Source of the DNA: Antedon mediterranea
Taxonomy: Eukaryota > Animalia > Echinodermata
Length of the DNA: 64,000 nucleotides
Assembly: GCF_964355755.1 (NCBI RefSeq)
Contig: NC_092671.1
Location: forward strand, 2,976,001 to 3,040,000
Direction: 5' to 3'
The position numbers and the translations under genes were made by a program. The notes beneath the pieces are model-generated. The model saw only the letters and a program-made list of their open reading frames with translations. It was not told where the DNA came from and ran no database searches. This document shows positions 1 through 24,600 of this stretch, one piece after another. The stretch's first letter is position 1, and each line of letters starts with the position of its first letter.

Positions 1-2129
1 TGGTGTGTCACCAATATATTGATTTTCCTGAAAACTAATAAGCATGGTCTATTGGTATGTGGCATTATCGTGCAAACAAATGTACTACACGTGACAAAAT
101 GTTATTTTGCCAAGTAAAAAAGAAACCCTAAAGCTCTGTTTACACTATCAAACTTTATGTGACAAAAAATGTGATGTGCCCATATATGGATATGATGATG
201 TCATATCACTACCATATTTGGGCATATTACTACCATATTTGGGTAAATCACACCATTTTTGTCAAACTAGTTTGGAAAAGTTGATCATTGCTAAAAATGT
301 CACATCATCATTTATAAATTCATGATTGATATGGGTTCTATTGTTCCCACAAATACAAACAATATTTTTCATAGTATGTTTTCATAAAGAAAAAAATAAA
401 TCACATCGCAATATTTACAATTACAAACTCATTAGCGTAAAGTATTTAAAAAAAACGTTTATAGCTCAAGGGGTTTATTGTGCCAGTTTTCCACCTACTG
501 GGTTGAGCCAATTTCTGATGCCTTAGTTACTTAATTTCTACTACAATTCATCTTTCATAACTGCATCAAATTACCATGTTAGTTAATTTGTCATATTATG
601 TTGATATATCCCAACCCTCGGGGCAAAGCACTTAGAGAATAAAGGTAATGCATTTTAAAATAACGACTACCTGACACTTTTAGTTCAATGGTCAGTAACA
701 TTTGATTGTTAATATGTAAACGTCGCAAATGATCAGGAATCCATTAAATAAATTTAAACTTGTCGTTTGTACAGTACATTCATGCTAAACATGACGATAT
801 ATGAATTGAAAACTAGTTCTATTCAACTACCGTGCCAAGTATATAAGAACGCTGCCGATATAAGAACGTCTGCTGCAAAAAGCTAAACATTTCATTCCGG
901 ATTTTGCTGCACAACTAAAGGCATTTCTAGGATATTTTAATATAATATGAATATAAAATATTATACAACCAATGACTGTTTATGGTGTTGAATGGTGAGA
1001 ATATTTCATGAGTTGAAATTTACAACTGTTCTATTTACTGTTAATTAGTACCACTTTTCTGTTCAATGGAACAAAATGCACAAATCGAGGTATTTTTCAG
1101 CAGTTACCTAACACATTTAATAGGTTACGTGTTTGGATATTGATTATTTTATGATAGTTTAAATGTATTTAAGGGTAAAATCTCTATAATGTTGTGATCT
1201 TTGTTTATGTTTTTGTTGCTTATTGAATACATTTTTATAGTTTATTATGTTTAGATTCAACCTGTTAGTGGCGGTTTCATCGCTGTTGGTTGACAACTGA
1301 ATAAAATAAATAAAATAAATAACTAAAATAAATGATACATTAACCAATCAAATGGTAGAAATACTCTTGGGTGTGTTATAAAAAAAAAAAAAAAATTAAA
1401 AAAATTAACTAACTAAATAGAATATACCCTTGTTCCTTTGAATAAAATAGCAGTGATCATACTTAGTACAATACAAAGTAGTATTCTTCAAAACCAAAAA
1501 GTTATTGTAGTAAATATACAAGCTACATTGGACATAGAACACTTTTGAGGACTGACAAATAATGACAGGGTAACGATAGAGGTACAGTGTAGTAATCAAT
1601 GCTAAGTAACAAAATTAGCAATGCTTAAAATGAAAAATAAAACCGATTTCAGGAATACAAGACAACATTAGCATTAACACTGGAAATCTACTTGGAAAAG
1701 GATTGAACTGAAGACTTTAGAATTAGAACTGCGGTGCCACTAAAAACAAAAATAATCCTGTTTCACCTTAGTACATTGAACAAAAATAGAGTCTCTGGAT
1801 GTATAAACTGGAGATTGACATTCCACACACAGTTTAAGAATAAATTTCATCTATTTTAGGTATGAAACAAGATTTATTTATAATGATTCCCTCAGGGGAA
1901 ATGCAATAAGTCACATTTAATTTTAATGAAATGAGTTAAACAAACAAAGTTTAAACCAAATAACCCATCCCTCTTGTAAAACTACTACTAAAAACAAACT
2001 TTCATAAAGTATGACTTATTTCCATTCTCAATAAAGGCAATCAAGTTAGTGGTATGTAGCATAGCCCCCTCTATCTGAGTGTTAATAACAAAGGGTGGCG
2101 TTTGGTGTTTAATTTAAGTGACCTCTCAC

Positions 2130-2269
2130 CTGTTTGTGGGTCATCTCCTGACCATGCTATTGTTACGCCTCCTATCTCCGAGTCACTGAAGCGTAACAAG
2201 AAATTGCCATTTGGTCGACTAAGTAACAGATCTTGAGCCTGGCTTCTGGTCACGAACCCCATGATGGAC
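2130..2269 (-). CDS. STAT5: STAT coding exon 15, SH2 ([46 protein letters not shown])
   Basis: CAG acceptor, GTGAGA donor, FLLRFSDS phosphotyrosine-pocket motif. The next SH2 exon was not found in 1-2129. Confidence 0.93.
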
Positions 2270-5200
2270 CTGAATATTAAATGAATTTATTTTAGCTGTA
2301 GTTATGTAATCTAAATTGAATGAATAAGTTTTGCCGGACCAGCAATCAATTAAACACTTGTACTTAGTCTGAATTATTGCACTACAAACTAATCAAAGTA
2401 CTTTATTAAAGTAGAAACCCCTCCTTTGGGACACCTCTATTATGAGGACACTTTCGTATCAAACTACCAAGGGGCATTATATATTTCAAAGCTCTGTCTA
2501 CACTATCAAACTCTATGTGGCAAAAACAAAAAACAATGTGATGTGCCCATATACTGTATGAACATGATGATGTCATATCACTACCATATTTGGGCACATC
2601 ACACTTTTTTTTGTCAAACTTGTTTGATAGTGTAGACAGAGCTTAACACTATAGCTAACCTCTATTTAGGAAACATCTCTATCTAGGAGACACTCTGTTG
2701 GGTTTCAAAGGGTGTTTCTTTAATATAGATTTTACTCAAAACCGTAAGCACATAAATCTGATATTTAATTTAAATTATTCTTGAAAGCGCATAAACTATT
2801 AACAAGAAAGTTTTCTTGCTATCCTGCTTAATTACCCATCATTCCATGGTCCTCGTAGGTGCTTCCGTGTAAGCTCTTGTACTCCGTGGAACCACTTCCA
2901 AAATGTGAAATTCCTACCTGGTAATGGATCCTGTAAAGAGATAGAAGCCAATCAAGTTGAAAAAACATTTATTTGTTCAACAATGGCATATTTTTTAACA
3001 GTGTAATATATAGGTGTGTACATTATTTAAATGAAACAAGGTAATAAGCCATCATTTGGGGTCTTCTCTAGAAGAAATCAAGTTTCTTGTCTCAAGAAAG
3101 ACCCCAGAAACAATACATATAAACTAATACAATTTACTACTTAAAATAATAAATAAAACAAAGAACGATGGAATAAAAATAGATACATTCAGAGTACTAC
3201 AATCATAATAATATTAAAATTAGTATAAAGAAATAAGATATTTTTTTAAATTTTACGAAAAGTATAAAGAGATTTAAAATGTGTTACTCTTTAGCAATAA
3301 TTAGGTTTAAAAGAGGGTGTGTTGTACTGTTTGTTTTCTGTATATTATTGAATATTGGATGTGATTTATTATGCTTAATATCTTGATGTTTTGACGCACC
3401 TTTTATAGATTAACTGCCACAAATATTATTAGCTTCAAAAAGGTGCGAAAATGCTGCTGTTTTTATTCAGATATTACCATTTTAACTCCATTAAAGTAAT
3501 GTTCAAATGCAATGCAAAAAAATACTTCAAAGTTAAAATTACCAATACAGTGCACTTAACCTATAATATGTGACAAACGTGTGACACTGTATGACAGATT
3601 ATTCCTAATATACTGAACAGAGATGTCCTAATAACATTGTAAGCATATGAAATACAAACCAATAGGTGAATTAAAAAAAAACCAAGCCAAACTGACCCTG
3701 TTAAATGTACTCCAAGATAGCTGGATTGTGGAATAGTCGTCTATTTGGATATTCTGGCCGCTAAATGCCTTCTGTGCTAGGTAATTAAGGTTCTCAAGTG
3801 ACAGACTTCTACCGTTAGCTGACATAAATTTAGAATTCAGAGCTTTCCCCATATCTGGCCAGGCTACTCTATCTGGTACTGCAAATGGAATCCTTCCCTA
3901 CAAAGCGTAAAATAAATTTTTACAAGATTAATTTTTGGCTTGTTATAAAAACAAAAAATCATACAATCTAGACAAAATGAATTCATTGTTTAACCTATTA
4001 ACCTATAAATCACATATTAAAAGGGTCTGTATAAATTACTGAAATACATTGAAATTATCAGAAAAAATTGGCTAATGTTTACTACAAACCAAAATTAGTT
4101 TTACTACGGTAATAGGAAATGCTGCTATTAAATATTATTATTTAGCAATTGAACTTTAATATAGAAAAAATTGATATATGCTACATTAATAAATCAATCA
4201 TTGTATTGTACAAATTCAGTATAAATAATCAAAAATAAATCTATATATTGAAAAGTTCCATTCTCATTTGAACCTGGAAACTTTAGTTACATGATGGGTA
4301 CTTAACAACTAGACCACAATGGATCATTATTATATATATTATTGTTTTCTTTATAATTAAAATATGTTATTAATTTGGTCATTCTTAAAAGATACTGTAC
4401 TATCTATAAAATATATTATATATGGTAAGAATTGGAGTTCAAAGGTCGTAATATTCAACTTACTGGCTCGGCAAAGGCATTGTCCCACAAGACTGTAGCC
4501 AATGCGTTCGACTCCTGGTTGCCGTGGACGATAACTACAACCGGGAGAGACATCGTCTGTGTGGTATGACAAGAAATTGTCCCATTTTTACGTATATTTA
4601 AGGACATCCCTAATTGGCAGAGTAAGCAGGCAGACGGCAACACAACCGTAAAAACACCAGCGTACCCACAGCAAATAAATAAATTAAAAGCAACGAAACA
4701 AAATAGAGAACCATGCAAGAACATAAACCCTTTCCAGAATAAATAAAATCAGAAAAATTAGAAAATGATTAGAGAAAATTTAGATAGCTTGTGAGTAATT
4801 CAGGAGATTTTCCATGTGTGTAGCCGTTTACCCACAATCCTCGGGAAGGAGCAACAGTTCCGATGTTCTCCCAGCATGCTTTAGCACTTACTGATTCGGC
4901 AAAAGCATTATCCCAGAGGATGGTCGCAAGAGCATTGCATTCTTGGTTACCATGCGAGACCACAACTACTGGTAGAGACATGGTCTAAAAAGAAGACGAA
5001 GAACGAAAAAAACGCAAACAAAATAAAAGAAAAGAACTGAAAGTAGCCAAAGAAAAAAAGCATTTAGTTTTCCGCAAAAGCTGCCCCAATTATTAAAACC
5101 AATTTCTATCACCAAGTAACAAAAAGAAAGAAAAACACAGACACATGAAAACACAACATGCAAATATAAGTGTAAACATTGATAATTATTATACAACAAG

Positions 5201-8200
5201 ATGAAAACATAAATATGCTGTATTCTATGTTAAAATGAATGATACATTAATAAAAAATATAAACATAATATATATAAAGTATTAGTCTCTTTCCGAGTGT
5301 AGACCACTTTTCAAAATTCTGGTCTGAAAAATGGTCTATTATTGGAGAGAGAGAGAGTGCAATTTATGGGTATATTCATAGTCATACAACAGAACTACAG
5401 TGATAATTCTAATTTGGCCACAATGATCAATGACTCATCATATAATTGTGGTTACATTTTGAAGGGTCAGGGTTAAAGATCCACCAAAAAAAAAAAATAA
5501 TAATAAAAAAAAAGCCCTCAGTGGGACTTGAACCAGGGATCTCAACTGTGAGAGGCTGGATACATAATCATTACACCAAACTCTCATCCACTACTTTGTA
5601 GTGTGCAGTTAGCCTATTTATACACTAGAACTAATAAAAAAAAATATAAAAAAAAAAAACATTTTTGGGGGGGAATTTTATGTCGGGAAATTTTACAGTA
5701 GGCGGAGGTTTGTACTCTCGGAGTACCCTCTAGTTGTAAATGTCATTTAAAGAGAAGGCCCCTGGATATCAGCTGACCTGTAGTTCAGCTGGAAGGGTTA
5801 CCCTCTTTAAATAAAGTTTAAATAAAATAAATTATAATTCAACACAAATTAAAATGAGCAGTGCAGACCAGTCAGTTTGAATTGAACTACAGTATAGTTA
5901 GCGTTTCAAACCCCATTTAAAATGTCAAAGTGGTACTTGTCACATATTTGGTTTTAAAAAGAACATTTCTCAAATAATAATTTTGGAGGATATTCTCCCC
6001 CTCCCTGACCTAACTCCATACCATGCCCAACCCATTGCCACTCCTGTACTATTTTTGGATGGTCACTTACCCTAACTTGAAACACTAGTTCACCACTGGC
6101 TATTGAAAATGTTGACTGAAACAGAATGGTAAACTTTTCTTCTGTAACAAACTGAAAATATAAATTTAAAATAATTAATTTAAATAAGTAAAACCAATTT
6201 ATAATGCACACATTTTATTGATGGTCACTTATGACAAACATTTGTTATTTGAATAAGGATAAGTATTTCATCATAATGTTAAAACACTAAGCACTGTCTA
6301 TACCATCAAACATTATGTAACAAAAAAATGTGATGTGCCCATATATGGACATGATGATGTCATATTACTACTATATTTGGAAATATCACTACCATATTTG
6401 GGCAAATCACACTTTTTGATTCACTAGTTTGATAGTGTACACAGAGCTTAAACCACATTTGTTTTCTAGAAAATGACATCAACAAATCAACAAATATTGT
6501 TTAAATGTTTTATTATTGTGTGTTTATTACTTTACATATAAGAATAAATACATTTCCTGTCAACCATATTTACCTCTGACCCCCTCCTATCTGCTCGTCG
6601 AATCCTCTTCAGTGACATATTTCTAAACGTTACAGTAAGATTGCCGGATTCTTTGTGGTATTCCATAACTCCACAGTTGTTCAAGATATCTCCACTTGTC
6701 TCACTAAAACGAAATAAGATACACAGTTAATAGAAAGCAAATGTATGTAATGTATGGTCTGCATGGCTTGTGTACTCGATTCATTCCTCTCTGATTTTGA
6801 AAGATTTGCAATTTCTTTTTGTTTTGTTTCTGTTTCTGAAGTTTTTTATTAGATCTTATCATAAATCATTAACGAATACTAGTACAAAAAGACAAAACTT
6901 TGGACATGAAGTAAAACAAACAGTAAAAAATTAGTCAACAACATTTTGTTTACAAAAAGCTGAACATGCATTAGAGTGTGTTAGTTATCACCAATAGATA
7001 ACAATTTTATTATTTTTTTTTCAGTTACGTAGGGCTATTCCGAATGACATGATGTGTAATTAATCAGAATACAATCAGGTGCGTTATAACATCCAATAGC
7101 TATAACTATTATTAAAAAATAATGATAATATGATATACTCACTTCATTCCTAAGTTATTATCATTGAGTAAATTCTTGGCTTGAGCCTCACTAACAATGG
7201 TAGCCTTAACTTGTGGGGGGTTCATGTGGACGTTTAGTTTACCCCCGACCAGTAACCGGACAGACGCTGCAAATCGTGTCTCCTTCTTCAGAACTTGTGG
7301 CGGTTGCTTCTCAATTATGAATGTACTGTTGAGAGAAAACAAATATTTGTTTTATATAATCTTAGAATTATAAAATAAAGGGAAAGGTGACTCATGTATT
7401 CATTCTCAATGTAAGGGAATGAGCTTAAGCTCCGTCTAAACTATCAAACTACTTTGACAAAATAAGTGAGATGTGCTCAAATATAGTAGCGATATGCCCA
7501 AATTTATGGTAGTGATATGACATCATCATGTCCATTATATGAGCACATCACATTCTTTTTTCATATAAAGTTTGATAGTGTAGACAAGGCTTTATTGTAC
7601 TAAGTCTTGGCATTATGTGGTAGGGTGATAAGTCTTAATGAGATATGCAACAAGTATACAGTAAATACAAATATAAACAAAGAATAAATTACATATTATT
7701 TACAATGTATGCTTTGTCATGAAAAAAAATACACAAAACAAATTAAAACACTGGAAAATAAAAACCAGTTGAGATCTTATAATTATATATAATACCTTAC
7801 ACAGTAAAAAAAGACAAATTGAAACTAAGAAAGGTACAAAATTAAGTTTAAGAAGGAACTGTATATAGATGTCATGTCATGTGGAAATCAAGGATTATCT
7901 TATATTAGATCTGAAGAATAAAAAATAAATCAAAAATAAAAATAGAAGTGTATAGCATGGCATAAACGTAGATCTGGAGTACACCAGCAGTGAAGTCAAC
8001 TGATACTATGTATCTGTCAATGATGGCCTTGTGTCTTCAGAAGAGAACGGTTACAAGAACAGTAATGTAATGTTGATAAATGATTCTATTCATCTAAGTA
8101 GGTAATGCATAAGTTTGTATCAAACAATCTTTTACTTGATGCATTGTATTAAAATTATGCATTAATTCTCATTTTGTATCATTACCATACAGTAGTACTA

Positions 8201-11200
8201 TTAGAGCTCTCTCCGTCCACTACGTCTTAAATAAATTACTCTGTATTTTCCAGCGAATGCATATACCATACGTTTGTGTTGGAAAAAAAAGAGGCTTACC
8301 ATTTCATATTCACACATTGATCTGATTTTGATGTAATATTTATGTAAATGTTCATATGTATTCGTTATGGTACCATATGTATAATGTTATTATATAATCG
8401 GGTTCTATACTTAATTAAAAAATCAAGTTAAATGGTACAAAATTCATTTAAAAGTAAATCTTCTCCATAAGTTAAAAAAAAGTTCTAAAATACTGTAGGA
8501 TTTTTTATTATTTATAAATCTGGTACCTTTAATCTGGTACCTTTAATCTGGTACCTTTAATCTGGTACCTTTAATCTGGTACCTTTAAAGTGGGGATGTT
8601 CTTTCTGTTATTTACTTAAGTATATAAATAGTAGTGGGTACAAGAAAAAATGTAAATAAAAATACGTATTTTCTGAGAAAACATCGAAAAAAGACCTAAA
8701 ACTTGTTTTTACTTTCTGTAATTGTAGTATTGAGTTCTGAAAGAAGATCTAAAACTCACCTTGTTACCAGCGTTGAGAAGAGAGCTTAATGGTGGTATTG
8801 AGTTCTGGGAAAAGATCTTTAAACTCACCTTGTTACAAACGTTGAGAAGAGAGCTGTAATGGTGGTATTGAGTTCTGAAAGAAGATCTAAAACTCACCTT
8901 GTTACCAGCGTTGAGAAGAGAGCTTAATGGTGGTATTGAGTTCTGGGAAAAGATCTTTAAACTCACCTTCTTACAAGCGTTGAGAAGAGAGCTGTAATGG
9001 TGGTATTGAGTTCTGGAAAAAGATCTAAAACTCACCTTGTTACCAGCGTTGAGAAGAGAGCTTAATGGTGGTATTAAGTTCTGGAAAAAGATCTAAAACT
9101 CACCTTGTTGCAAGAGTTGAGAGTAGAGCTGTAATGGTGGTATTGAGTTCTGGAAAAAGATCTAAAACTCACCTTGTTACAAGCGTTGAGAAGAGAGCTG
9201 TAATGGTGGTATTGAGTTCTGGAAAAAGATCTAAAACTCACCTTGTTACAAGCGTTGAGAAGAGAGCTGTAAAGGTGGTATTGAGTTCTGGAAAAAGATC
9301 TAAAACTCACCTTGTTACAAGAGTTGAGAGTAGAGCTGTAATGGTGGTATTGAGTTCTGGAAAAAGATCTAAAACTCACCTTGTTACAAGAGTTGAGAGT
9401 AGAGCTGTAATGGTGGTATTGAGTTCCGGAAGAAGATCATTACCAGGTACTTTCATTGGTAGTTGTTGTCTTAGTAACTCTACTTTCTTGATTTGTTGTC
9501 TGTTATGCCATGTGATTTCAGCTAACATTTCACACCTAAGTGTAAACAAAAATGTATTTAGGCACATTGCCAAGAATTGCCATAAGTGAATGTTATCACT
9601 GGTCTAATAGGTGACAATCTTTTCGCAAGACACTGTACATAAACAAAGTTTAACTATAACAAGACACTCTACATAAACAAATGATGGAGTGGCGTTTGCT
9701 GCTGTTGTTAAAAGCCCAGAACCCAGGGATTAATACTAACACATATTAACCACCAAATTTTATTTTTAGTTTGCTGTCATTTTATGCACCAGTTTATTAA
9801 TATTCATAAAGAAGTCAGTGAGTCTCTAGTTCTAATCATATTTGAATAAAAACTTAACCAAATATACATCAATGTTAAGTTCTGAGATTTGTAAATTTAT
9901 AAATTGGGACAAGGAGCAAATGTACACATTACAAACCCCTATTGAGGGGACACCCATATTAAGACAATTGTTTGGTTACAAATATGTCCCTTAGTAGGAG
10001 GTTCTACTGTTCAAGAAATCCATAATATACTTCTTTTTTTTAAACCATATTTACATCCAACAATTGCTGATCATTAGGGACCTTCAGAGGTTCACAAGAC
10101 AAGCATATACACAAGATGCTTGACATAAACAAAGTCTTACAAGTCTTTGGGAGTGGAGTTTTTTGTCCTTTGAAAAAATCTTGACATGTGACGGGACTTG
10201 AACCCAGTAACCATTTAATCACAGACATAAATAACATTTAGTCAAGCTCTCCTTTTAAATGTCAGAAGTACTTTCCATTATTGTTTTCAATGAAAACCTC
10301 CATTCAACTACTAAACGTATTTTAACATCGAGAAGAAATCCAAACCAAACATAGTGATTTAATGTTTCTCCGCACATACCATTTTTGTAATTGATCCAGA
10401 GTGCCCTCTAAAGGCCCTCCGATTCCAGCTAATTGTTGTCGTCGCTTCCATTGTATCAACTCGTCTTCTAAGACTGTATGCTGTACATCTTTGATTTTCT
10501 CAAACATTTGTTTGTGTTTTTCAGCCAAACTCTAAAAAAAATGTAAGGTTAACAACATTCAATTTAAAAATTATGTTTTGACTAAAGCTCTGTCTACACT
10601 ATCATACGTTATGTGACAAGAAAGTGATGTGCCCATATATAGACATGATGATGTTATATCACTACCATATTTGGGCACATCACACGATAAACATAATTGC
10701 GAGGTTTCCCTATTTTTACCAAGGAAATCCAACTTGATTAATATTAATATTCTCAAAAACTGTTTGCAGCTCTCCAAATTGTCAAGATTCGCAAATATTA
10801 ATTTCAGAATAAAATTTACATTACAAATTAATTTTCAAGTTTATTTTAATTTTGTGAAAAGCAAATGTTAATTAGAAGCAATAACACTGATTCCAGTTAT
10901 TTTCTAATTCAGATCATGAATAAATTTGTTGTTGTTAATGTTTTAATATGTCTAGCCCACACATTTCGCATAATGCTATCCAGTAGGAAAGAATGACATT
11001 TCAAAGTCCCTAGAAAGTAGTTTGTTTATGTACAGCTCTGAAATGATAAGTAAACTGATCCATGTTGTACATTAGACATAGAAAAATGTTATGACCTACA
11101 TTTGTGTACCCAGGTCAAATAATAAAAATGTCACATATATTGAGTACCCAAGTCAATGATAATTTAACATCATGTGACCAGTATTTGGCAAATTTCACAT

Positions 11201-14200
11201 ACATTGAGTACCCAAGTCAATGATAATTTAACGTCATGTCACCAGTATTTGGCAAATGTCACATATATTGAGTACCCAAGTCAACATTAATTTAACGTCA
11301 TGTGACCAGTATTTGGCAAATGTCACATATATTGAGTACCCAAGTCAATGATAATTTAACGTCATGTGACCAGTATTTGGTTAATGTCACATACATTGAG
11401 TACCCAAGTAAATGATAATTTAACATCATGTGACCAGTATTTGGCAAATGTCACATATATTGAGTACCCAAGGCAATGATAATTTAATGTCATGTGACCA
11501 GTATTTGGTTAATGTCACATACATTGAGTACCCAAGTAAATGATAATTTAACATCATGTGACCAGTATTTGGCAAATGTCACAAACACTGAGTAAGTACC
11601 CAAGTCAATGATAATTTAACATCATGTGACCAGTATTTGGCAAATGTCACATATATTGAGTACCCAAGTCAACATTAATTTAACATCATGTGACCAGTAT
11701 TGGGAAAATGTCACATACATTGAGTAGCCAAGTAAATGATAATTTAACGTCATGTGACCAGTATTTGGCAAATGTCACATATATTGAGTACCCAAGTCAA
11801 TGATAATTTAACGTCATGTGACCAGTATTTGGTTAATGTCACATACATTGAGTACCCAAGTAAATGATAATTTAACATCATGTGACCAGTATTTGGCAAA
11901 TGTCACAAACACTGAGTAAGTACCCAAGTCAATGATAATTTAACGTCATGTGACCAGTATTTGGCAAATGTCACATACATTGAGTACCCAAGTCAATGAT
12001 AATTCAACATCATGTGACCAGTATTTGGCAAATGTCACAAACACTGAGTAAGTACCCAAGTCAATGATAATTTAACATCATGTGACCAGTATTTGGTTAA
12101 TGTCACATACATTGAGTACCCAAGTAAATGATAATTTAACATCATGTGACCAGTATTTGGCAAATGTCACATACATTGAGTACCCAATATGATTTCAAGC
12201 TGTGACTGCCATGTGTCACATCTTTGACATACAAATGTCACCCACCCATGTGGTCGTCATAGAAGTAATAAATCATACATATTGACAGATGTGGTTTTAA
12301 TTCACACATTTTCATATACATGTCAGCAAGCAATAAAACTATATTATTAGAAAGTATTGGTATTCCTGAAAAATTAGAAAGAAACTCAGATATCTTGTTG
12401 GGAATAATGATGCCCGGAATATTGTAAAACTTACAATTCTCATTGTTAGCAGATGTTGTGCTTCTGTTTGTAATACAGTCTCTAGGTCCATTTTCTTTTG
12501 CTTTAGCAACGGTTCCTGAGCTAACCGATTTGGATCTCTTTCCGGCAGAGATTGTAATTGTGCTAACTGATCTGAAGATAAAGCAAACATTCATTCACTC
12601 ATCACTGGAAAATAATTTCAATTTATTAAAAATATATATACATTATGTTTGCTCAAGCATTCTGTGGTCATGGATGATTCGATTACATTTTTTAGGCAAA
12701 CTGTACCAGGGCTAATTTTGAAATCTACTTTTTATTATATTACTTAGGCCGTAAGACAAATCTTAACCAAATTTAAACCGCAGATATGTGGTCACAGAGG
12801 GCAAGCCGGACCAGGATCCCAATTCTGGACCACTCATTATTTTACTAATTTAAGGATGTACGTCAAAACTACAAGATGGATCTTTTTCACGATTCTTGAT
12901 CATCTATAGCTAATGTAGAATTTACTATGTAGATAAAACTCTGTCTACACTATAAAAAAAATGTGATGTGGCCATATATGGAAATGATGATGTCATATCG
13001 CTACCATATTTATTTAAGCATATCACCACCATATTTGAAAATATACATCACACTTTTTTTTGTCAAACTAGTTTGATAGCTTTGGGTGTTTTAGTTACTG
13101 TACTTACTTTGTAATTTCAGATTTTCTTGATATTGAAAGACAAACATCTCTTGTTTTTGTTGTAAGGTATCCAAATCCTTTTCTGTATCCTATACATGAA
13201 TAAGTATAATGACCATGCATCAATAAAATACACAAGTAAGAACTGTATATGACTACTGTATGTGGTCTAATGGTATGTTACCAACTCTGAAAGTCATGGG
13301 TCTAACTCCTCTTCTGTACCCTATAGATGAACAGTTTTAATGGCCAAATGCATTGATCAATAAAATACACTATTAAGTGTTGTATGTGGTATAATAATCC
13401 TAAAAGAGATCTTTTTTTTCATACAATAAAATTTCTTCTTCCTTGAGGAACACATTTGCATATTATTTGACAAATCTGACCTAATTTGCATATTATTTAA
13501 ATATTATTTGACTAATTATAAGATACATACAGCCGTCATGATCCTCAACTCATGTAAAGTTGTTTCAATACTTTCATGACTGTCTGACATTGGTGTTCTT
13601 GCCAAGTTACCCTGCAACATACAAAACACAAATTATTATATCAATTTTACCCCCTTTTTTTTGCGATATAAATATGTTTGATTTAGTTAGGGAGAAAGAC
13701 AGGGAGGTAATTTACTGTATAGTATAGCCACTACTGTTGACTATTACTCTAGAACCCCTCTTTTTGGACACACCTATTTAGGGGACACACCCTAAAGCTA
13801 TAGCACATTCACACTACTTGTGTTGTGATGGAAAATTAGAGTTTATCAGCGCCATCTTTCAGTGTTGATGTAGTTTTCCTCAGGGACACCAACAATTAAG
13901 GGGACACCACCTAATAAAGGGGAATTTCCTTCCTTTTTCTGAATCAACGTCAAAATATGGTTTAACAATTTGGCTAACACTATTAAGGGACACCTCTATC
14001 ATTATGACAATTTTTTGAGTCATAGAAATGTTTCCTTAAAGTTCTACTGTATCAGTGCAGTGTTTGTTGCTGTTATACAAGTCGCTTTAAATACGTCCAA
14101 CCCTGGAATACTGTAATAATGTCTGGGTTCCTAAGTTTTTAGCAGATGAGGATAGGTTGGAGAAGCTACAACAAAAGGCCACCCGATTCATTCCGGAACT

Positions 14201-17200
14201 AAGGGGTACAGAGTATGTATGTAGGATAAAAATACTTGATCTTCCTACGTTAGTTTATAGAAGAAAGAGAGCTTCTCTGATCCATGAAAGGATTCGATAA
14301 ATTGGACACTGAAACCTTTTTTAATATGTCAACTATCCATTATACTAGAGGTCATTCTTTCAAACTGTTAAAGCCGCGGGTCAAAACTAAATGGGGATCA
14401 AATAATTTTGAAGCAAGAGTAGTTAATGATTGGAACGCTTTGCCGAGAGTTGTTGTGGAGTCAAAGTCATTGAATCAGTTTAAGTCTAATTTGAAAGAAC
14501 ACTGGAAAAACCACCACCAGAAGTTTCAGCCGTATGATTGTTCCATTTCTTGCAAAAACCGGACCACTTTAGTTCTCGTAGCTACCGTACATCCCTGTGT
14601 ATTATTTTAAAAAACAATTTACTTACACCGGCATCGTCTACAAGGCTTTGTTCCACTTCAATGCAATATCTTATTGTTCGTACAAAATTTAAAGGCGATA
14701 TACTCCATCGTTGCTATAAATATAAAACATACAAGGCATTAATAATCAATTTCTAATATCACAGTATAATCCAATGCTATAAATATTTTAAATTGTATTT
14801 TTATATTATCAATAACAATTGAAAAAACATATTACCTATAATAATAAGTATAACATAAGAATAATACAGAAGGGAATTAACAATAAGGAATTTCATATAA
14901 AAGGCATAATCCAAAGTGTATGAATAAAACAGTAAATGACATTAAACTCAAATTAAATGTAAAAACATAATTGGATAAAAAGACATTACAGATCATTAAT
15001 TACATTTCCAATAAAATACTAAGAAATTAGTATGAATAAAAGATAACTGTATTTATTAATACATGTGCAAAAATGATAGCATTCTATTGTAGTAAAATCT
15101 AGCAAAGATCCCAGTAACTGGCTCGGGTTTGGCCAGTCAAACAAATGGGAATTTGTAAACTCGGACTGGGCTTGCGCAAAACTTAGAGGGCGTCTGGGAG
15201 AAGAGAGTATATTGAGATGTATGCAGACAGTTAGTCTATAAGACCTGTTTTCGTTTTCGCTGCTTCTTAAATTATCAAATAGAATATCAATTTTTAAAAA
15301 AGACAATAATTAACAATTAATTATTACATCAAAATGTCGAGCAGCATTTTTTGTAAGAAATATTTCTTGTTTCATATATATTTCATAATTTGTATAAATT
15401 ACCATGTATATTTTTCAATTTGTTTACTAATACCGTATAGTATTCTATTTTGTTTCTAATTTTCATGTGATTTGGGATTGATAGATTTAATGTTCATTAT
15501 GTTACGACAGATTCATTAATTTTCTTATTAGTTTCCTTTCCATTTCTGTCATGGCTAGAATACATGTCATCCAATTCTAATTACATGTCTCTAACTACTA
15601 CAGTATATCTATCATAGTTATCTTGTCTTATCTGGTCATTCTCATCTCCATGCTATTGTTAATTTAACTTTAGGCCATGGCAAATAAATTACATGGTTCT
15701 CATCATCAGTCGGCCACATGAAATATTTGGTCCATCATAAAAAATGTTCATTTGTATACATTGGAATCAGGGATTCTAAAGAAACGAACATGAGAAGGAT
15801 ATGAACATAAGAAGGATATGAACATAAGAAGGATATGAACATAAGAAGGATATGAACATAAGAAGGATATGAACATGTTTTAACACTACAACTACAGTAA
15901 AGCTCTGTCTACTGTACACCCATCAAAAATAAAATAAATCTAGAAAATCTCTACTTTAGCTCTGAACTTTGATTTTTTAGATCTTTGACGTAACTTAATG
16001 CATTTAACATTCAAAGTTTTGTAATTAACGTGTGTCTGGTATTATAGGATCACTACAAACGTCATCATTTTATGAACTATACTGAATACTCTTAAAATCT
16101 TGTTCACACTAGACCATTCTCCTTTAAGCTCTGTATACACTATCAAACTAGTTTGACAAAAGAATGTGATGTGCCTAAAAATGGTAGTGATATGCCCAAA
16201 TATGGTATTGATATGACATCATTATGTCCATATATGGGCACGACCTTTTTTGTCACATAAACTTTGATAGTGTAGACAGAGCTTAGGTAAATGTAGACAG
16301 CATTATGATTGGACTTTTTGAACTTTACCAAAGTCTTTCGAAAAGCTTTTAAAACAGGATTTCAAAATAAACATAGATTGTAGGTATGTCTATGTTTCTT
16401 TCCTGTCTAGACGATAAACAACATTAATAATTAAAAAATCTAGGAGTAAGAACAATATGCATATTATTATTCTATGAATTATGTATGAAATACGTATTTC
16501 CCAAAAGATTTCAGAAAAGTGTAGCATGCAAAACTTAAATTAAAATCTTTCCTCTCATGCAAGTATTTAAATAAACTGTATTCCAGATTATAAATTAAAT
16601 TCTTCAATATTTCATCCATGTTACATCACCATGACAACCATTAAACATTAATATAGGTTACCGTATGCAATTTTTAATGAACAAGAAACATGTCTGATTC
16701 ATAATTATCAGTGGATTTACTCCAATATGTTGTAAATTTTCTCACGATGAGTTACTGTAGGAGTGATTAACTCATCTGGCTCATCTACCATACTATTTAC
16801 ATACCGTATTTATTTGATTTTAGGTGGGAGGGGCGTTTATTTAATGGAGGTGTTTATTTAAAGCGGGGTGTTTATTCGAATAAATACGGTATGAATTTTG
16901 TGTGTAATTTTGTATTCCTTTAAACAACATTATGGTGAAATAAAGAAAGAAGATCTACAGTACAGTATCAATCACATGCCATACATTTTATTTCAAAATC
17001 TAAACCATTATTAAGGGACACCACACAAGCTATTATGCCAGTGTCACTAGTTAATGTAACAAATCATGTCGGAAATGATGACAAAACCACAATATTCCCT
17101 CTTAATTAATTGTACTGTAAGATAAACAATGTGTGACGTTTCAACTAATGATTTAAGAAAATAAACTAAGCTTACATCTAACTCTCTTGCAAATTGGTTT

Positions 17201-19426
17201 AGCTTCAGTCGGATTGGAAACATCATTTCATCTGACAATCCTGATGCTTTCTGGTTTACTTGCTGGATGAGTTCTTGCAGCAGCATCCTGGCATTTGGTT
17301 CCATACTAAGGTCATCGACATTGATGCCTTGCCTAACAAGAAAAATGTTTACCTCTTTTTATAATACTGTACCATGGAGATATAAAAATAAGCTGCGTCT
17401 TAAGCTCTGTCTACACTATCAAACTAGTTTGACAAAAAAAGTGTGGTGTACCTAAATATGGTAGTGATATGCCCAAATATGGTAGTGATATGACATCATC
17501 ATGTCAATATGGGCATATCACATTTTTTTTTTGATACAGTAGTGTAGACAGAGCTTAAGTAATGAGTAATACCCATGAAATTGCAAGAATGATGGGGTCT
17601 CAAGTGGGTGTCTTCACCGGTCGGTGGGAAAAAATAAAACAGTTTACTTGTCTACACGATCAAACTTTATGTGACAAAAAATGTGATGTGCCCATATATA
17701 GACATGATGATGTCATATCACTATCCTCTTTGGGCATATCACTACCCTCTTTGGGCACATCACACTTTTTTTAGTGTAGACAGAGCTTTAGGCACCCAGA
17801 GGTTTCTTGAGTTGGGTGCTGTTGCAATTTAGGCTAGGTGGAAGGCATTACCAAGATGGGTATGAGATTTTGAAGTTGGCTTTACACACTGTACCCACCT
17901 CTCTGCCTAATTACACGAATGATGTATTGCACCACTGCCATAATGACACAAAAACAAACCCACCATGGATATAAATAAGCCCACTCTGATATGATTAAGC
18001 CCACTTTGGATATAAGCCCACTCTGATACAGTATGATTAATCCCATTTTGGATATAGGCACACTCTGATATGATATGAAGTTGACTATGATATGATTTGG
18101 GTATAAATAGGCCCACTCTGATATCAATAAGCCCACTTTGGGTATAAATAAGTAATCCTTTAAATGTACAGAGTAATGTTGTTTTATAGAATGACTCATT
18201 TCAAAATTCTGCTGTGCCCACCTTGGACAGAATGGGGTAGGCCTACAGTACATTCAAGACTTTTAAGAATATAAAACTGAAATATTAATAATCTTAAATC
18301 TATTCATTGATTGAAAATGAATATTGCATGATATTTTTAAGGAAAATCAGACGATCTTTGCCTTATAACTTATATTATGAAAAAACATCAAGGCCAGTTC
18401 TTAAACAACTAATGAACAGTATAAACACATCAAATACATGAACCCAGTTTTAAGCTACCTGGATAATTTCCGATGACATGACACATATCAAATAAAGAGG
18501 CCCTGGAAATTTATTTTTAACACATTGGATTTTCCCCCATTGATATCAGATTACGGCTTACATTGTATTATCATGTAAATCTGATCCAGTCATGATATAT
18601 TTCCAACCAATGGCCTGCATCTTGTCTTTTTAAAAAGGGTGTATAGCTGAATTTAACTTAGGTAGTACAATAACTATTTACTGAACTGCGTCATGAGATC
18701 AAGAAACCTAACTTGCTTAACTCGGGGCTCTTACTACACTGTACTGTATATAAAGTAACTTGCTAATAAAATGTCCTGGTTGTAATAATATAACAGGTGG
18801 GTTTACAGTGTCACACAATATTTAGGCCTATAGCACTGCACATCAATTTCAAAAACACAGTGCAATAGTGTCTTTAATAATTAAAATTAGAGAAAATAAT
18901 GCATTGCATGTGATATGAAATCAACCAATCAAATAGTAAGGATATACAAAGTACTGTACATGGCAACTTCTGAAGGGAGGTGGTTTTTTCTTTAGGTCAA
19001 CAGCACTCTATTTATTATCGAGAGGTAGCGTGTGTGCAGTGTGTGACTCGCAAGCGATATTGCATGGTGGAGTGTTCAGGAAAAAAATAATGACTGCAGA
19101 TGGTTGTATAATGGATTAAATATCGTAAATTTGCATGCGTGTTATATTTTAATGCACAAAACAACACATACTGTACATCAAAATTCAGTTATCTTTGAAA
19201 ATGTGCAAAACCAGAAGCACAATATTAGGCCGGAAGACAGTCTAAAAAACAGGAGTGTTGGCATGTATGAGATGTGTTATAATATTTTAACCTACCAATC
19301 TTGAGCCTCAATCCATGAGGCACAGTAATATCTGATTTCCATTGGGAATTGTGTATGCATGTACAAGGCCTGCAGCTTTTGCAAGTCCTCTCCCTGCAGC
19401 TGCTGTAAGCGTAGTATAAGAGACAT
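2130..19426 (-). CDS. STAT5: STAT5/STAT6-like signal transducer and activator of transcription, multi-exon, 3'-partial (N-domain, coiled coil, DNA-binding domain, linker, start of SH2)
   Basis: 15 GT-AG exons join in one frame (1906 nt using one copy of exon 12). Motifs: [102 protein letters not shown]. Confidence 0.96.
2489..2644. mobile_element. About 160-bp MITE family A (PIF/Harbinger-like), representative full copy
   Basis: TIR AGCTCTGTCTACACTATCAAACT...AGTTTGATAGTGTAGACAGAGCT with TTA/TAA-type flanks. Other copies or fragments at about 131-274, 6289-6449, 7427-7592, 10584-10685, 12935-13080, 15899-15920, 16126-16284, 17402-17556, 17649-17789, 22657-22693, 27810-27927 and 52141-52236. 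Confidence 0.88.
2836..2930 (-). CDS. STAT5: STAT coding exon 14 ([32 protein letters not shown])
   Basis: CAG acceptor, GTAATT donor, 95 nt. Not in the ORF track. Confidence 0.95.
3697..3897 (-). CDS. STAT5: STAT coding exon 13, linker ([20 protein letters not shown]...LSWSTFNR)
   Basis: TAG acceptor, GTCAGT donor, 201 nt. Confidence 0.94.
4464..4556 (-). CDS. STAT5: STAT exon 12b, alternative copy ([31 protein letters not shown])
   Basis: CAG acceptor, GTAAGT donor, 93 nt, phase 0-0; canonical STAT5/6-type motif. Confidence 0.92.
4892..4984 (-). CDS. STAT5: STAT exon 12a, alternative copy ([31 protein letters not shown])
   Basis: TAG acceptor with a long U-rich tract, GTAAGT donor, 93 nt, phase 0-0. 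Confidence 0.9.
5514..5580 (-). mobile_element. tRNA-derived SINE head / tRNA pseudogene
   Basis: A-box TGGTGTAATGA and B-box GGTTCAAGTCC; stems imperfect. Confidence 0.55.
6071..6151 (-). CDS. STAT5: STAT coding exon 11 ([27 protein letters not shown])
   Basis: CAG acceptor, GTAAGT donor, 81 nt; VTEE motif. Confidence 0.95.
6289..6449. mobile_element. MITE family A copy
   Basis: Same TIRs and internal GTGATGTGCCCATATATGGACATGATGATGTCATAT. Confidence 0.88.
6574..6703 (-). CDS. STAT5: STAT coding exon 10 ([43 protein letters not shown])
   Basis: TAG acceptor, GTAAAT donor, 130 nt. Not in the ORF track. Confidence 0.95.
7143..7325 (-). CDS. STAT5: STAT coding exon 9, start of DNA-binding domain ([14 protein letters not shown]...NNLGM)
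   Basis: CAG acceptor, GTGAGT donor, 183 nt; close match to the STAT5 motif. Confidence 0.96.
7427..7592. mobile_element. MITE family A copy (reverse orientation)
   Basis: Same TIRs; TTA on both sides. Confidence 0.85.
8517..8587. repeat. 14-bp tandem repeat (AATCTGGTACCTTT) x5
   Basis: Read directly. Confidence 0.9.
8720..9440. repeat. 69-bp tandem array derived from the STAT exon 8 / intron junction (about 10 copies)
   Basis: ACTCAC (donor, reverse complement) at 8754, 8823, 8892, 8961, 9030, 9098, 9167, 9236, 9305 and 9374. Confidence 0.95.
9380..9535 (-). CDS. STAT5: STAT coding exon 8 ([19 protein letters not shown]...[11 protein letters not shown])
   Basis: TAG acceptor, GTGAGT donor at 9374-9379, 156 nt. 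Confidence 0.93.
10380..10531 (-). CDS. STAT5: STAT coding exon 7 (SLAEKHKQ...[28 protein letters not shown])
   Basis: TAG acceptor, GTATGT donor, 152 nt; WKRRQQLAG motif. Confidence 0.95.
11127..12187. repeat. 64-bp intronic minisatellite, about 16 copies
   Basis: Unit AATGTCACATACATTGAGTACCCAAGTCAATGATAATTTAACATCATGTGACCAGTATTTGGCA; some units carry a 4-bp insertion. Confidence 0.95.
12435..12571 (-). CDS. STAT5: STAT coding exon 6 ([16 protein letters not shown]...QHLLTMRI)
   Basis: CAG acceptor, GTAAGT donor, 137 nt, phase-consistent coiled coil. Confidence 0.88.
13108..13189 (-). CDS. STAT5: STAT coding exon 5 ([27 protein letters not shown])
   Basis: TAG acceptor, GTAAGT donor, 82 nt; resembles STAT5 [22 protein letters not shown]. 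Confidence 0.9.
13531..13611 (-). CDS. STAT5: STAT coding exon 4 ([27 protein letters not shown])
   Basis: CAG acceptor, GTATGT donor, 81 nt; resembles the start of the STAT5 coiled coil. Confidence 0.85.
13745..14052. mobile_element. Degenerate CAGTAGAACC...GGTTCTACTG (pogo/Tigger-like) MITE family B
   Basis: GGGACACC repeats and a TTCTACTGTA end; related remnants at about 2408-2740, 9930-10010, 41855-41980, 43305-43480, 45915-46045 and 49493-49695. Confidence 0.6.
14090..14540 (+). mobile_element. CR1-like LINE 3' fragment (end of the RT ORF)
   Basis: [11 protein letters not shown]...[16 protein letters not shown]...LPTLVYRR and TRGHSFKL...[10 protein letters not shown]...SLNQFK motifs; frameshifted. 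Confidence 0.85.
14627..14713 (-). CDS. STAT5: STAT coding exon 3 ([29 protein letters not shown])
   Basis: TAG acceptor, GTAAGT donor, 87 nt; resembles STAT5 PLELVRCIRHILYNEQRLV. Confidence 0.88.
15786..15876. repeat. 17-bp tandem repeat (GAACATAAGAAGGATAT) x5
   Basis: Read directly. Confidence 0.9.
16126..16284. mobile_element. MITE family A copy (reverse orientation)
   Basis: Same TIRs. Confidence 0.88.
17176..17332 (-). CDS. STAT5: STAT coding exon 2 ([25 protein letters not shown]...FARELD)
   Basis: TAG acceptor, GTAAGC donor, 157 nt, phase fits neighbours. Confidence 0.92.
17402..17789. mobile_element. Two adjacent, oppositely oriented MITE family A copies (17402-17556, 17649-17789)
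   Basis: Same TIRs and internal motifs. Confidence 0.85.
17960..18150. repeat. Degenerate tandem repeat (AAGCCCACTCTGATAT core)
   Basis: Recurrent GCCCACT motif. Confidence 0.7.
19296..19426 (-). CDS. STAT5: STAT coding exon 1 ([44 protein letters not shown])
   Basis: ATG at 19426, CAG acceptor at 19448-19450, GTAGGT donor; STAT N-domain motif. Not in the ORF track. Confidence 0.92.
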
Positions 19427-23857: not shown

Positions 23858-24600
23858 ATGGGCACATGGTACAGACATGGGCACATGGTACAGACATGGG
23901 CACATGGTACAGACATGGGCACATGGTACAGACATGGGCACATGGTACAGACATGGGCACATGGTACAGACATGGGCACAGGGTACAGACATGGGCACAG
24001 GGTACAGACAAGGGCACAGGGTACAGACATGGGCACAGGTACAGACATGGGCACAGGGTACAGACAAGGGCACAGGGTACAGACAAGGGCGCAGGGTACA
24101 GACATGGGCACAGACAGGGTACAGACATGGGCACATGCTACAGACATGGGCACATGGTACAGACATGGGCACATGGTACAGACATGGGCACATGGTACAT
24201 ACATACTGTAGGCACATGGTACAGACATTGGCACATGGTACAGACATTGGCACATGGTACAGACATGGGCACAGGGTACAGACAAGGGCACAGGGTACAG
24301 ACAAGGGCACAGGGTACAGACATGGGCACAGGGTACAGACAAGGGCACAGGGTATAGACATGGGCACAGGGTACAGACAAGGGCACAGACATGGGCACAG
24401 GATACAGACATGGACACAGGGTACAACCAAGGGCACAGACAAGGGCACAGGTTACAGATATAGGCACAGACATGGGCACAGAGTATAGACATGGGCACAT
24501 GGTACAGACATGGGCACATGGTACAGGCATGGGCACATGGTACAGATATGGGCAGGGTACAGACATGGGCACAGAGTACAGACATGGGTACAGACATACT
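23858..24600. repeat. 19-bp minisatellite (ATGGGCACATGGTACAGAC), with a detached remnant at about 24845-24910
   Basis: Read directly; explains the stacked Cys/His-rich ORFs. Confidence 0.97.

Follow-up and report, generated by a model that had tools for sequence, protein, structure and literature searches.

A duplicated recognition exon in the STAT gene of echinoderms may give one gene two DNA-binding forms

Can a single invertebrate STAT gene make two DNA-binding proteins by choosing between two copies of one exon? While the diversity of STAT proteins is usually put down to gene duplication, an exon swap would be another route to the same end. The question is raised by a 64,000-nt stretch of the crinoid Antedon mediterranea genome (NCBI RefSeq assembly GCF_964355755.1, contig NC_092671.1, positions 2,976,001 to 3,040,000; hereafter, the window), on whose reverse strand two closely similar exons follow one another within a STAT gene. 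The original prediction from this sequence was that the two exons are probably mutually exclusive in splicing, possibly giving rise to proteins that read DNA differently.

Using Antedon protein P0095 as a tblastn query, we recovered 15 coding exons, running from 19426 to 2128, with 96-100% identity over most of the exon-length matches; an Anneissia protein matched the window exons with an identity somewhat below that of Antedon. The exon pair constitutes coding exon 12 of this STAT5-type gene. The encoded protein has five STAT Pfam domains above cut-off, namely, the N-domain, coiled coil, DNA-binding, linker, and SH2 domains, and its best PDB matches are STAT5A/B (E 1e-228). According to a structure model, the exon 12 product is predicted to form the final strand of the DNA-binding domain plus the helix following it. 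Since tblastn revealed no further STAT exon past 2128 (window positions 1-2127), the C-terminal STAT exons are either outside the window or absent from the assembly. The coordinates of all features are listed in Table 1.

Table 1. Features of the STAT locus, in window coordinates
Feature	Position	Strand	Remarks
STAT5-type gene, coding exons 1-15	2128..19426	(-)	tblastn with Antedon mediterranea P0095
Upstream flanking exon 11	6071..6151	(-)	81 nt, ends in phase 0
Long U-rich pyrimidine tract ahead of exon A	4985..5060	(-)	from sequence
Exon 12A, upstream copy	4892..4984	(-)	Val9, Ser10, His11, Cys16, Ile22
Spacer intron	4557..4891	(-)	335 nt, GT-AG; weak pyrimidine tract ahead of B
Exon 12B, downstream copy	4464..4556	(-)	Ile9, Val10, His11, Ser16, Val22; STAT5/6-like
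Downstream flanking exon 13	3697..3897	(-)	201 nt, phase-0 start; linker domain
MITE-like element sites	about 2490-2650, 6320-6450, 7450-7590, 10580-10690, 12990-13080, 16130-16290, 17420-17790		

The locus also harbors several repeats. A 69-nt unit, present 10.5 times at 8716-9438, reproduces the 3′ terminal part of STAT exon 8 including its GTGAGT donor; the array thus presents ten candidate donors in a row, and the exon frame hits a stop right after the first. Additional tandem arrays comprise 16 copies of a 64-nt unit (11126-12187, inside STAT intron 6) and 39 copies of a 19-nt unit (23858-24593). A short MITE-like element with inverted ends and very high copy number, reaching run depths in the hundreds of thousands, is found in many of the STAT introns.

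The two copies of exon 12, referred to below as A (upstream) and B (downstream), are each 93 nt long, preceded by AG, followed by GTAAGT, and in phase 0 at both ends. They encode 31 residues of which 26 are identical, and 19 of these 26 use different codons; at the nucleotide level, 64 of 93 positions agree, with zero indels and zero stops. The originally reported counts were all recovered in the sequence. Between the copies, pS is 0.92 and pN 0.12 (Fisher p 2e-11), and synonymous sites are near saturation. A 40-codon open frame after exon A was taken as chance.

Two explanations for such a pair were ruled out. An assembly artefact is contradicted by contigs from two DNA-like runs which traverse both copies (run X2 record 9, 3695-5576; run X4 record 18, 4047-5443; both from one sample, possibly the window's own source) and by the presence of the same exon pair on an unrelated metagenome contig, L001. 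On the latter, A is followed by B at a distance of 1096 nt; the donors are the same as in the window, and the B acceptor is similar. Like copies of the window and L001 agree at 77/93 nt (A with A) and 74/93 nt (B with B), unlike copies at 61-65/93 nt. In these comparisons pN is 0.043 and pS 0.57 for A, and pN is 0.049 and pS 0.71 for B, by which measure each copy is under purifying selection; a pseudo-exon is thereby ruled out as well. The proposal of an old duplication with selection on both copies is thus backed both by pS/pN between the copies and by the comparison with relatives.

To place the pair in a wider context, we assembled STATs from 14 named echinoderm species by protein searches and cluster look-ups. 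For eight of these species, covering four classes, namely, crinoids, sea urchins, sea stars, and sea cucumbers, the databases contain isoform pairs, all of them computed models, that differ solely inside exon 12. The differences amount to five residues in Anneissia japonica (XP_033121858/XP_033121861), six each in S. purpuratus (XP_011681708/XP_011681709), Diadema setosum, and a Lytechinus species which we take to be L. variegatus, and seven in Apostichopus japonicus (XP_071826490/XP_071826492). They rise to 10-12 in the sea stars Acanthaster planci (XP_022086633/XP_022086658), Patiria miniata, and Asterias amurensis, the sea-star A exon being two residues longer (33 aa). In all eight pairs, the A isoform resembles window A more closely and the B isoform window B, and the same four positions are fixed (A/B): 9 Val/Ile, 10 Ser/Val, 16 Cys/(Ser or Ala), and 22 Ile/Val. 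The match is perfect for Anneissia, whose isoform X2 carries an exon identical to window A in 31/31 residues, while window B is equally identical to the exon of Anneissia X1 and of both Antedon models. Other records contain one type alone: B in the two Antedon models, 5/5 Amphiura proteins, three Asterias rubens proteins, and one from Diadema antillarum; A in two Lytechinus pictus proteins. Overall, 44 of the 46 echinoderm proteins that hold the segment have one copy only, a count that leaves aside three short members of the clusters in which the segment is missing. An A-then-B tandem occurs in two non-RefSeq gene models, Holothuria leucospilota P0244 and an old S. purpuratus entry, P0077.

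With A- and B-types present in four echinoderm classes, both copies have been kept in relatives, as anticipated, and the duplication must be older than the divergence between crinoids and the remaining classes. Trees, built by quick methods with the exon left out, confirmed orthology; the limit they set on dating is before the echinoderm classes split. This split occurred about 480 million years ago. Apart from exon 12, two Amphiura isoforms (P0091 and P0020) differ over 16 residues at 692-713, near the phosphotyrosine tail, which is another alternative exon in an echinoderm STAT.

Are the copies used one at a time? The predicted presence of one copy per transcript is upheld by the database models of the eight relatives; in Antedon itself, mutual exclusion is probable. 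Within run X1, which we took as RNA-like (a guess, in line with exon bins several-fold deeper than the intron bins), a spliced contig with a depth of 70.8 extends 95 nt past exon 13, and a second contig with a depth of 9.1 begins at 4528 and runs unspliced through A; the two overlap by 30 nt, ending at 4557. This geometry would fit B joined to exon 13 with no retained branch at A, and B is likely the main form. The contig ends neither show nor exclude use of A, as contigs drop minor variants. Inclusion of both copies would keep the frame, and we found nothing that forbids it. In a predicted structure of the both-copies protein P0244, however, a copy-length stretch (464-498) is left unplaced with pLDDT under 50, and the contact loop is followed by a helix at 503-518. 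The model would fit room for one copy, though less forcefully because just 1 of the 50 rows in the alignment reaches the stretch, which may partly account for the low pLDDT.

These same observations bear on another explanation: in the crinoid, exon A may be a cassette that is seldom or leakily included, or that is included along with B, with no distinct protein role. The Antedon models that list B alone, the contrast between the shallow unspliced contig through A and the deeper spliced contig that would fit B, and the two gene models carrying both copies could all be read in this way. Against this stand the full identity of A between Antedon and Anneissia, the strong purifying selection on A, and its pyrimidine tract, which is the strongest among the 14 acceptors printed; moreover, loss of minor variants is expected in assembled contigs, and the both-copies model does not appear to fold the extra copy. 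We regard a leaky cassette as improbable. The exon pair is real and echinoderm-wide, and very probably mutually exclusive.

As for what keeps the copies apart, several familiar mechanisms were considered. Exclusion by frameshift and nonsense-mediated decay does not apply to two phase-0 exons of 93 nt which keep the frame. Steric clash is contradicted by spacers of 335 nt in the window and 1096 nt in L001, with an AG ∼53 nt before the B acceptor, and mixed spliceosomes by the fact that all introns are GT-AG with U2-type donors. A search for competing RNA stems gave a folding z of -0.68 and local z values of -1.67 to +1.6, with no convincing inverted repeats; the introns of the window and L001, two distant species, have no blocks in common, and an Rfam search of 3600-6300 returned no match.

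GCATG, the Rbfox word, is found in the spacer at 4879-4875 and 4716-4712, and the spacers of both species show an excess of it (2 versus 0.26 expected, p 0.026; 5 versus 1.84, p 0.029), which is nominal and fails correction for the 36 motif-region tests; words of the Esrp, Nova-type, branch-point, and PTB-type classes were not enriched in these tests. Among the 14 acceptors printed for the gene, that of exon A is the most pyrimidine-rich (0.91) and that of exon B the least U-rich. With B seemingly the commoner form, this is a pattern known from exons under repression by pyrimidine-tract binders. The sea-urchin list of Esrp-dependent genes, as far as the accessible text of PMC5703972 gives it, includes no gene named STAT and so gives no indication of Esrp control at 24 h. 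Given that frameshift, steric, minor-spliceosome, and RNA-stem mechanisms are without support, we propose that splicing-factor proteins might pick the copy, with A possibly repressed behind its long U-rich tract and the GCATG words after A perhaps contributing.

We then asked what the swap would mean for the protein. Exon positions 1-28 align to residues 450-477 of the STAT1 chain (1yvl), with position 11 corresponding to N460; position 10 is therefore S459 of STAT1 and V414 of STAT6. In a fish STAT3 segment (P0141), read in that register, positions 10-11 are Ser-Asn. The Ser/Val difference, originally noticed as lying beside the contact residue, thereby coincides with a known DNA-contact position: in the accessible portion of PMC5737217, the pocket for the thymine methyl is assigned to S459/Q463 in STAT1 and V414/Q418 in STAT6, and the STAT1 mutants S459A and S459R are reported to lose almost all specificity. 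Ser-to-Val is absent from the STAT1 mutants described in that portion. His11 and Gln14, which are the remaining contact residues that the exon encodes, are the same in A and B.

The pair had also been suggested to switch the preferred spacing between GAS half-sites from N3 to N4. In favor of isoforms that differ in this regard, the segment holds the residue corresponding to STAT6 H415, which has been tied to spacing, and neighboring residues may turn the His side chain, a reason offered for the difference between STAT5 and STAT6 (PMC5359187). However, a spacing switch is unlikely with His in both copies; STAT5 also has His, yet prefers N3 and does not take N4, and the dimer angle, set outside exon 12, has been invoked for spacing as well (PMC5359187). 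Furthermore, in a quantitative assay, STAT1 N460H left both specificity and the N3 preference unchanged (PMC5737217, accessible portion), although the commentary PMC5359187, citing Li et al. 2016, gives the opposite outcome for this mutant. We consider a difference in spacer preference very improbable. More plausibly, position 10 would alter half-site grip or affinity.

An alternative that retains exclusive exons is that the selected difference is regulatory, with Cys16 and the helix changes tuning redox sensitivity, off-rate, or dephosphorylation. Within A, Cys16 and Ile22 show the same fixation as Ser10 (8/8 pairs), they are predicted to lie on the helix that follows the contact loop, and the contact residues His11 and Gln14 do not change between the copies. 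On the other hand, Cys16 is ordinary in single-exon lophotrochozoan STATs and may be neutral or ancestral. We deem this regulatory explanation unlikely, if less so than a leaky cassette.

The relevant comparison comes from a survey of 40 loci. Besides L001 with its two copies and L040, an 11-aa chance match, it comprised 38 lophotrochozoan-type loci, each with one same-strand copy; 19 of the 38, many of them near-identical relatives, extend across the two flanking exons, 17 with introns and 2 without, and have one copy. Two short contigs, L034 and L035, contain a second, inverted copy of the exon region; these are likely assembly fold-backs. Hemichordate models (5 proteins) and amphioxus models (12/13 cluster members with a readable segment) have one exon type only, though an unannotated exon could be missed in either. 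In the STATs of annelids, molluscs, and nemerteans, position 16 is usually Cys, so the Cys of exon A is not clearly a novelty. Its commonness in lophotrochozoans may hint at an older duplication, but weakly, as Ser/Cys is a one-base change.

Nor is the Ser-His loop peculiar to exon A. It is present in a larvacean STAT paralogue (P0437 and relatives) and in two unnamed proteins, so position 10 turned to Ser more than once. This second larvacean (Oikopleura-type) STAT, represented by P0437, P0443, and relatives, reads Ile-Ser-His-Gly-Lys at the loop, and its Ser beside His arose via gene duplication.

Our preferred explanation, which we hold to be reasonably probable, is that one STAT gene gives rise to two proteins of the same length that differ by a swapped exon 12 and are predicted to differ in their grip on the GAS half-site, not in spacer length. 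The B form, with its STAT5/6-like Ile-Val-His, would be the default, and the A form, Val-Ser-His with a STAT1/3-type Ser, a regulated alternative. The Val/Ser swap would reshape the pocket around the thymine methyls of TTC and shift affinity or half-site tolerance; A/A, A/B, and B/B dimers could form. A functional difference between the isoforms in DNA binding is plausible and, overall, somewhat probable.

If this is true, echinoderms, credited with one STAT, would possess two DNA-binding forms that are older than the split between their classes, and studies of echinoderm immunity or regeneration that measure one STAT merge two forms. The pairs, with 5-7 residue differences in an identical background and one of these at a DNA-contact position, offer a ready-made way of asking how STATs whose consensus sites are nearly the same select their targets.

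A possible parallel emerged when exon A was searched against 1.84 billion representative sequences. The top-ranked match, P0263, is an unnamed 104-aa frame reading through two tandem exon copies: a first copy that matches the STAT-b exon of Ciona, Styela, and Clavelina at every residue, an intron-like stretch of 28 codons, and a 33-aa copy with Asn for His. The Asn-type 33-aa copy occurs alone in a full-length protein of Phallusia mammillata, P0495, which compared to Ciona STAT-b is identical at 59/60 and 51/60 residues in the flanks and at 19/33 in the exon, and which is placed among the STAT-b proteins of ascidians when the exon is left out of the tree. Ascidian STAT-b, from these two protein records, thus appears to have its own duplicate of the exon, with His swapped for Asn. 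We found no description of this Asn-type copy in the literature searched. Like the echinoderm pair, it involves tandem duplication of the same exon and a protein with the alternative copy alone; it differs in that the second copy follows the canonical one, has 33 aa, and replaces the base-contacting His by Asn. The canonical copy being first in ascidians, unlike in echinoderms, favors an independent origin.

One may tentatively go further and suppose that the STAT recognition exon was duplicated and became alternatively spliced in two deuterostome lineages, mixing STAT5/6-like and partly STAT1/3-like readers within a gene. This would make it a splicing counterpart, even a relic precursor, of the vertebrate paralogue split, a reading to which we give less than even weight. 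Here, echinoderms would swap in the STAT1/3-type Ser and ascidian STAT-b the STAT1/3-type Asn. If so, nature provides protein pairs in the same background for asking what sets GAS site choice, and the ascidian His/Asn pair would be a direct test of the disputed N3/N4 role of this residue.

No published description of the echinoderm STAT exon pair was found in the literature searched, whose coverage is thin in subscription journals; this is where most echinoderm STAT cloning papers appear. Reviews of STAT evolution, in their accessible parts, speak of one sea-urchin STAT and of paralogue duplication, with no such exon (PMC3670131, PMC3296744, PMC13203501); that the sea urchin has a single STAT gene is from PMC3670131. 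The nearest precedent is in the databases: the RefSeq/GenBank isoform pairs show the same exon pair, the same diagnostic residues, and one copy per protein, but are unremarked computed isoforms, and the Antedon models list B alone. Tandem-duplicated mutually exclusive exons are well known as a kind, and the STAT pair is implicit in RefSeq without comment.

Among established systems, human TCF3 (E12/E47) and MEF2A/C swap ancient internal homologous exon pairs in a like manner (PMC8373072, accessible text). The TCF3 pair encodes the bHLH, according to the accessible supplement of that paper. TCF3 and MEF2 belong to other protein families than STAT; a further difference is that only 5 of 31 residues change in the window's STAT pair. 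STAT1, STAT3, STAT5, and STAT6 have no entry in the accessible part of the human catalogue of mutually exclusive exons given there. Known STAT splice variants, such as STAT3 alpha/beta and S701, act on the C-terminal tail (PMC4436176, in the text accessible). FGFR IIIb/IIIc, regulated by Esrp, is likewise an ancient exon duplication, whose alternative copies switch a binding surface (PMC5703972, accessible text). Finally, vertebrates and tunicates distribute the same residues over paralogues, STAT1-4/stata versus STAT5-6/statb, with Ser in STAT1/3 and Val in STAT6 (PMC5737217, accessible portion), the two sub-families having arisen through gene duplication (PMC3296744, accessible part). Echinoderms, by comparison, would obtain the Ser/Val pair by splicing within one STAT5-type gene, with His kept and the rest of the protein identical.
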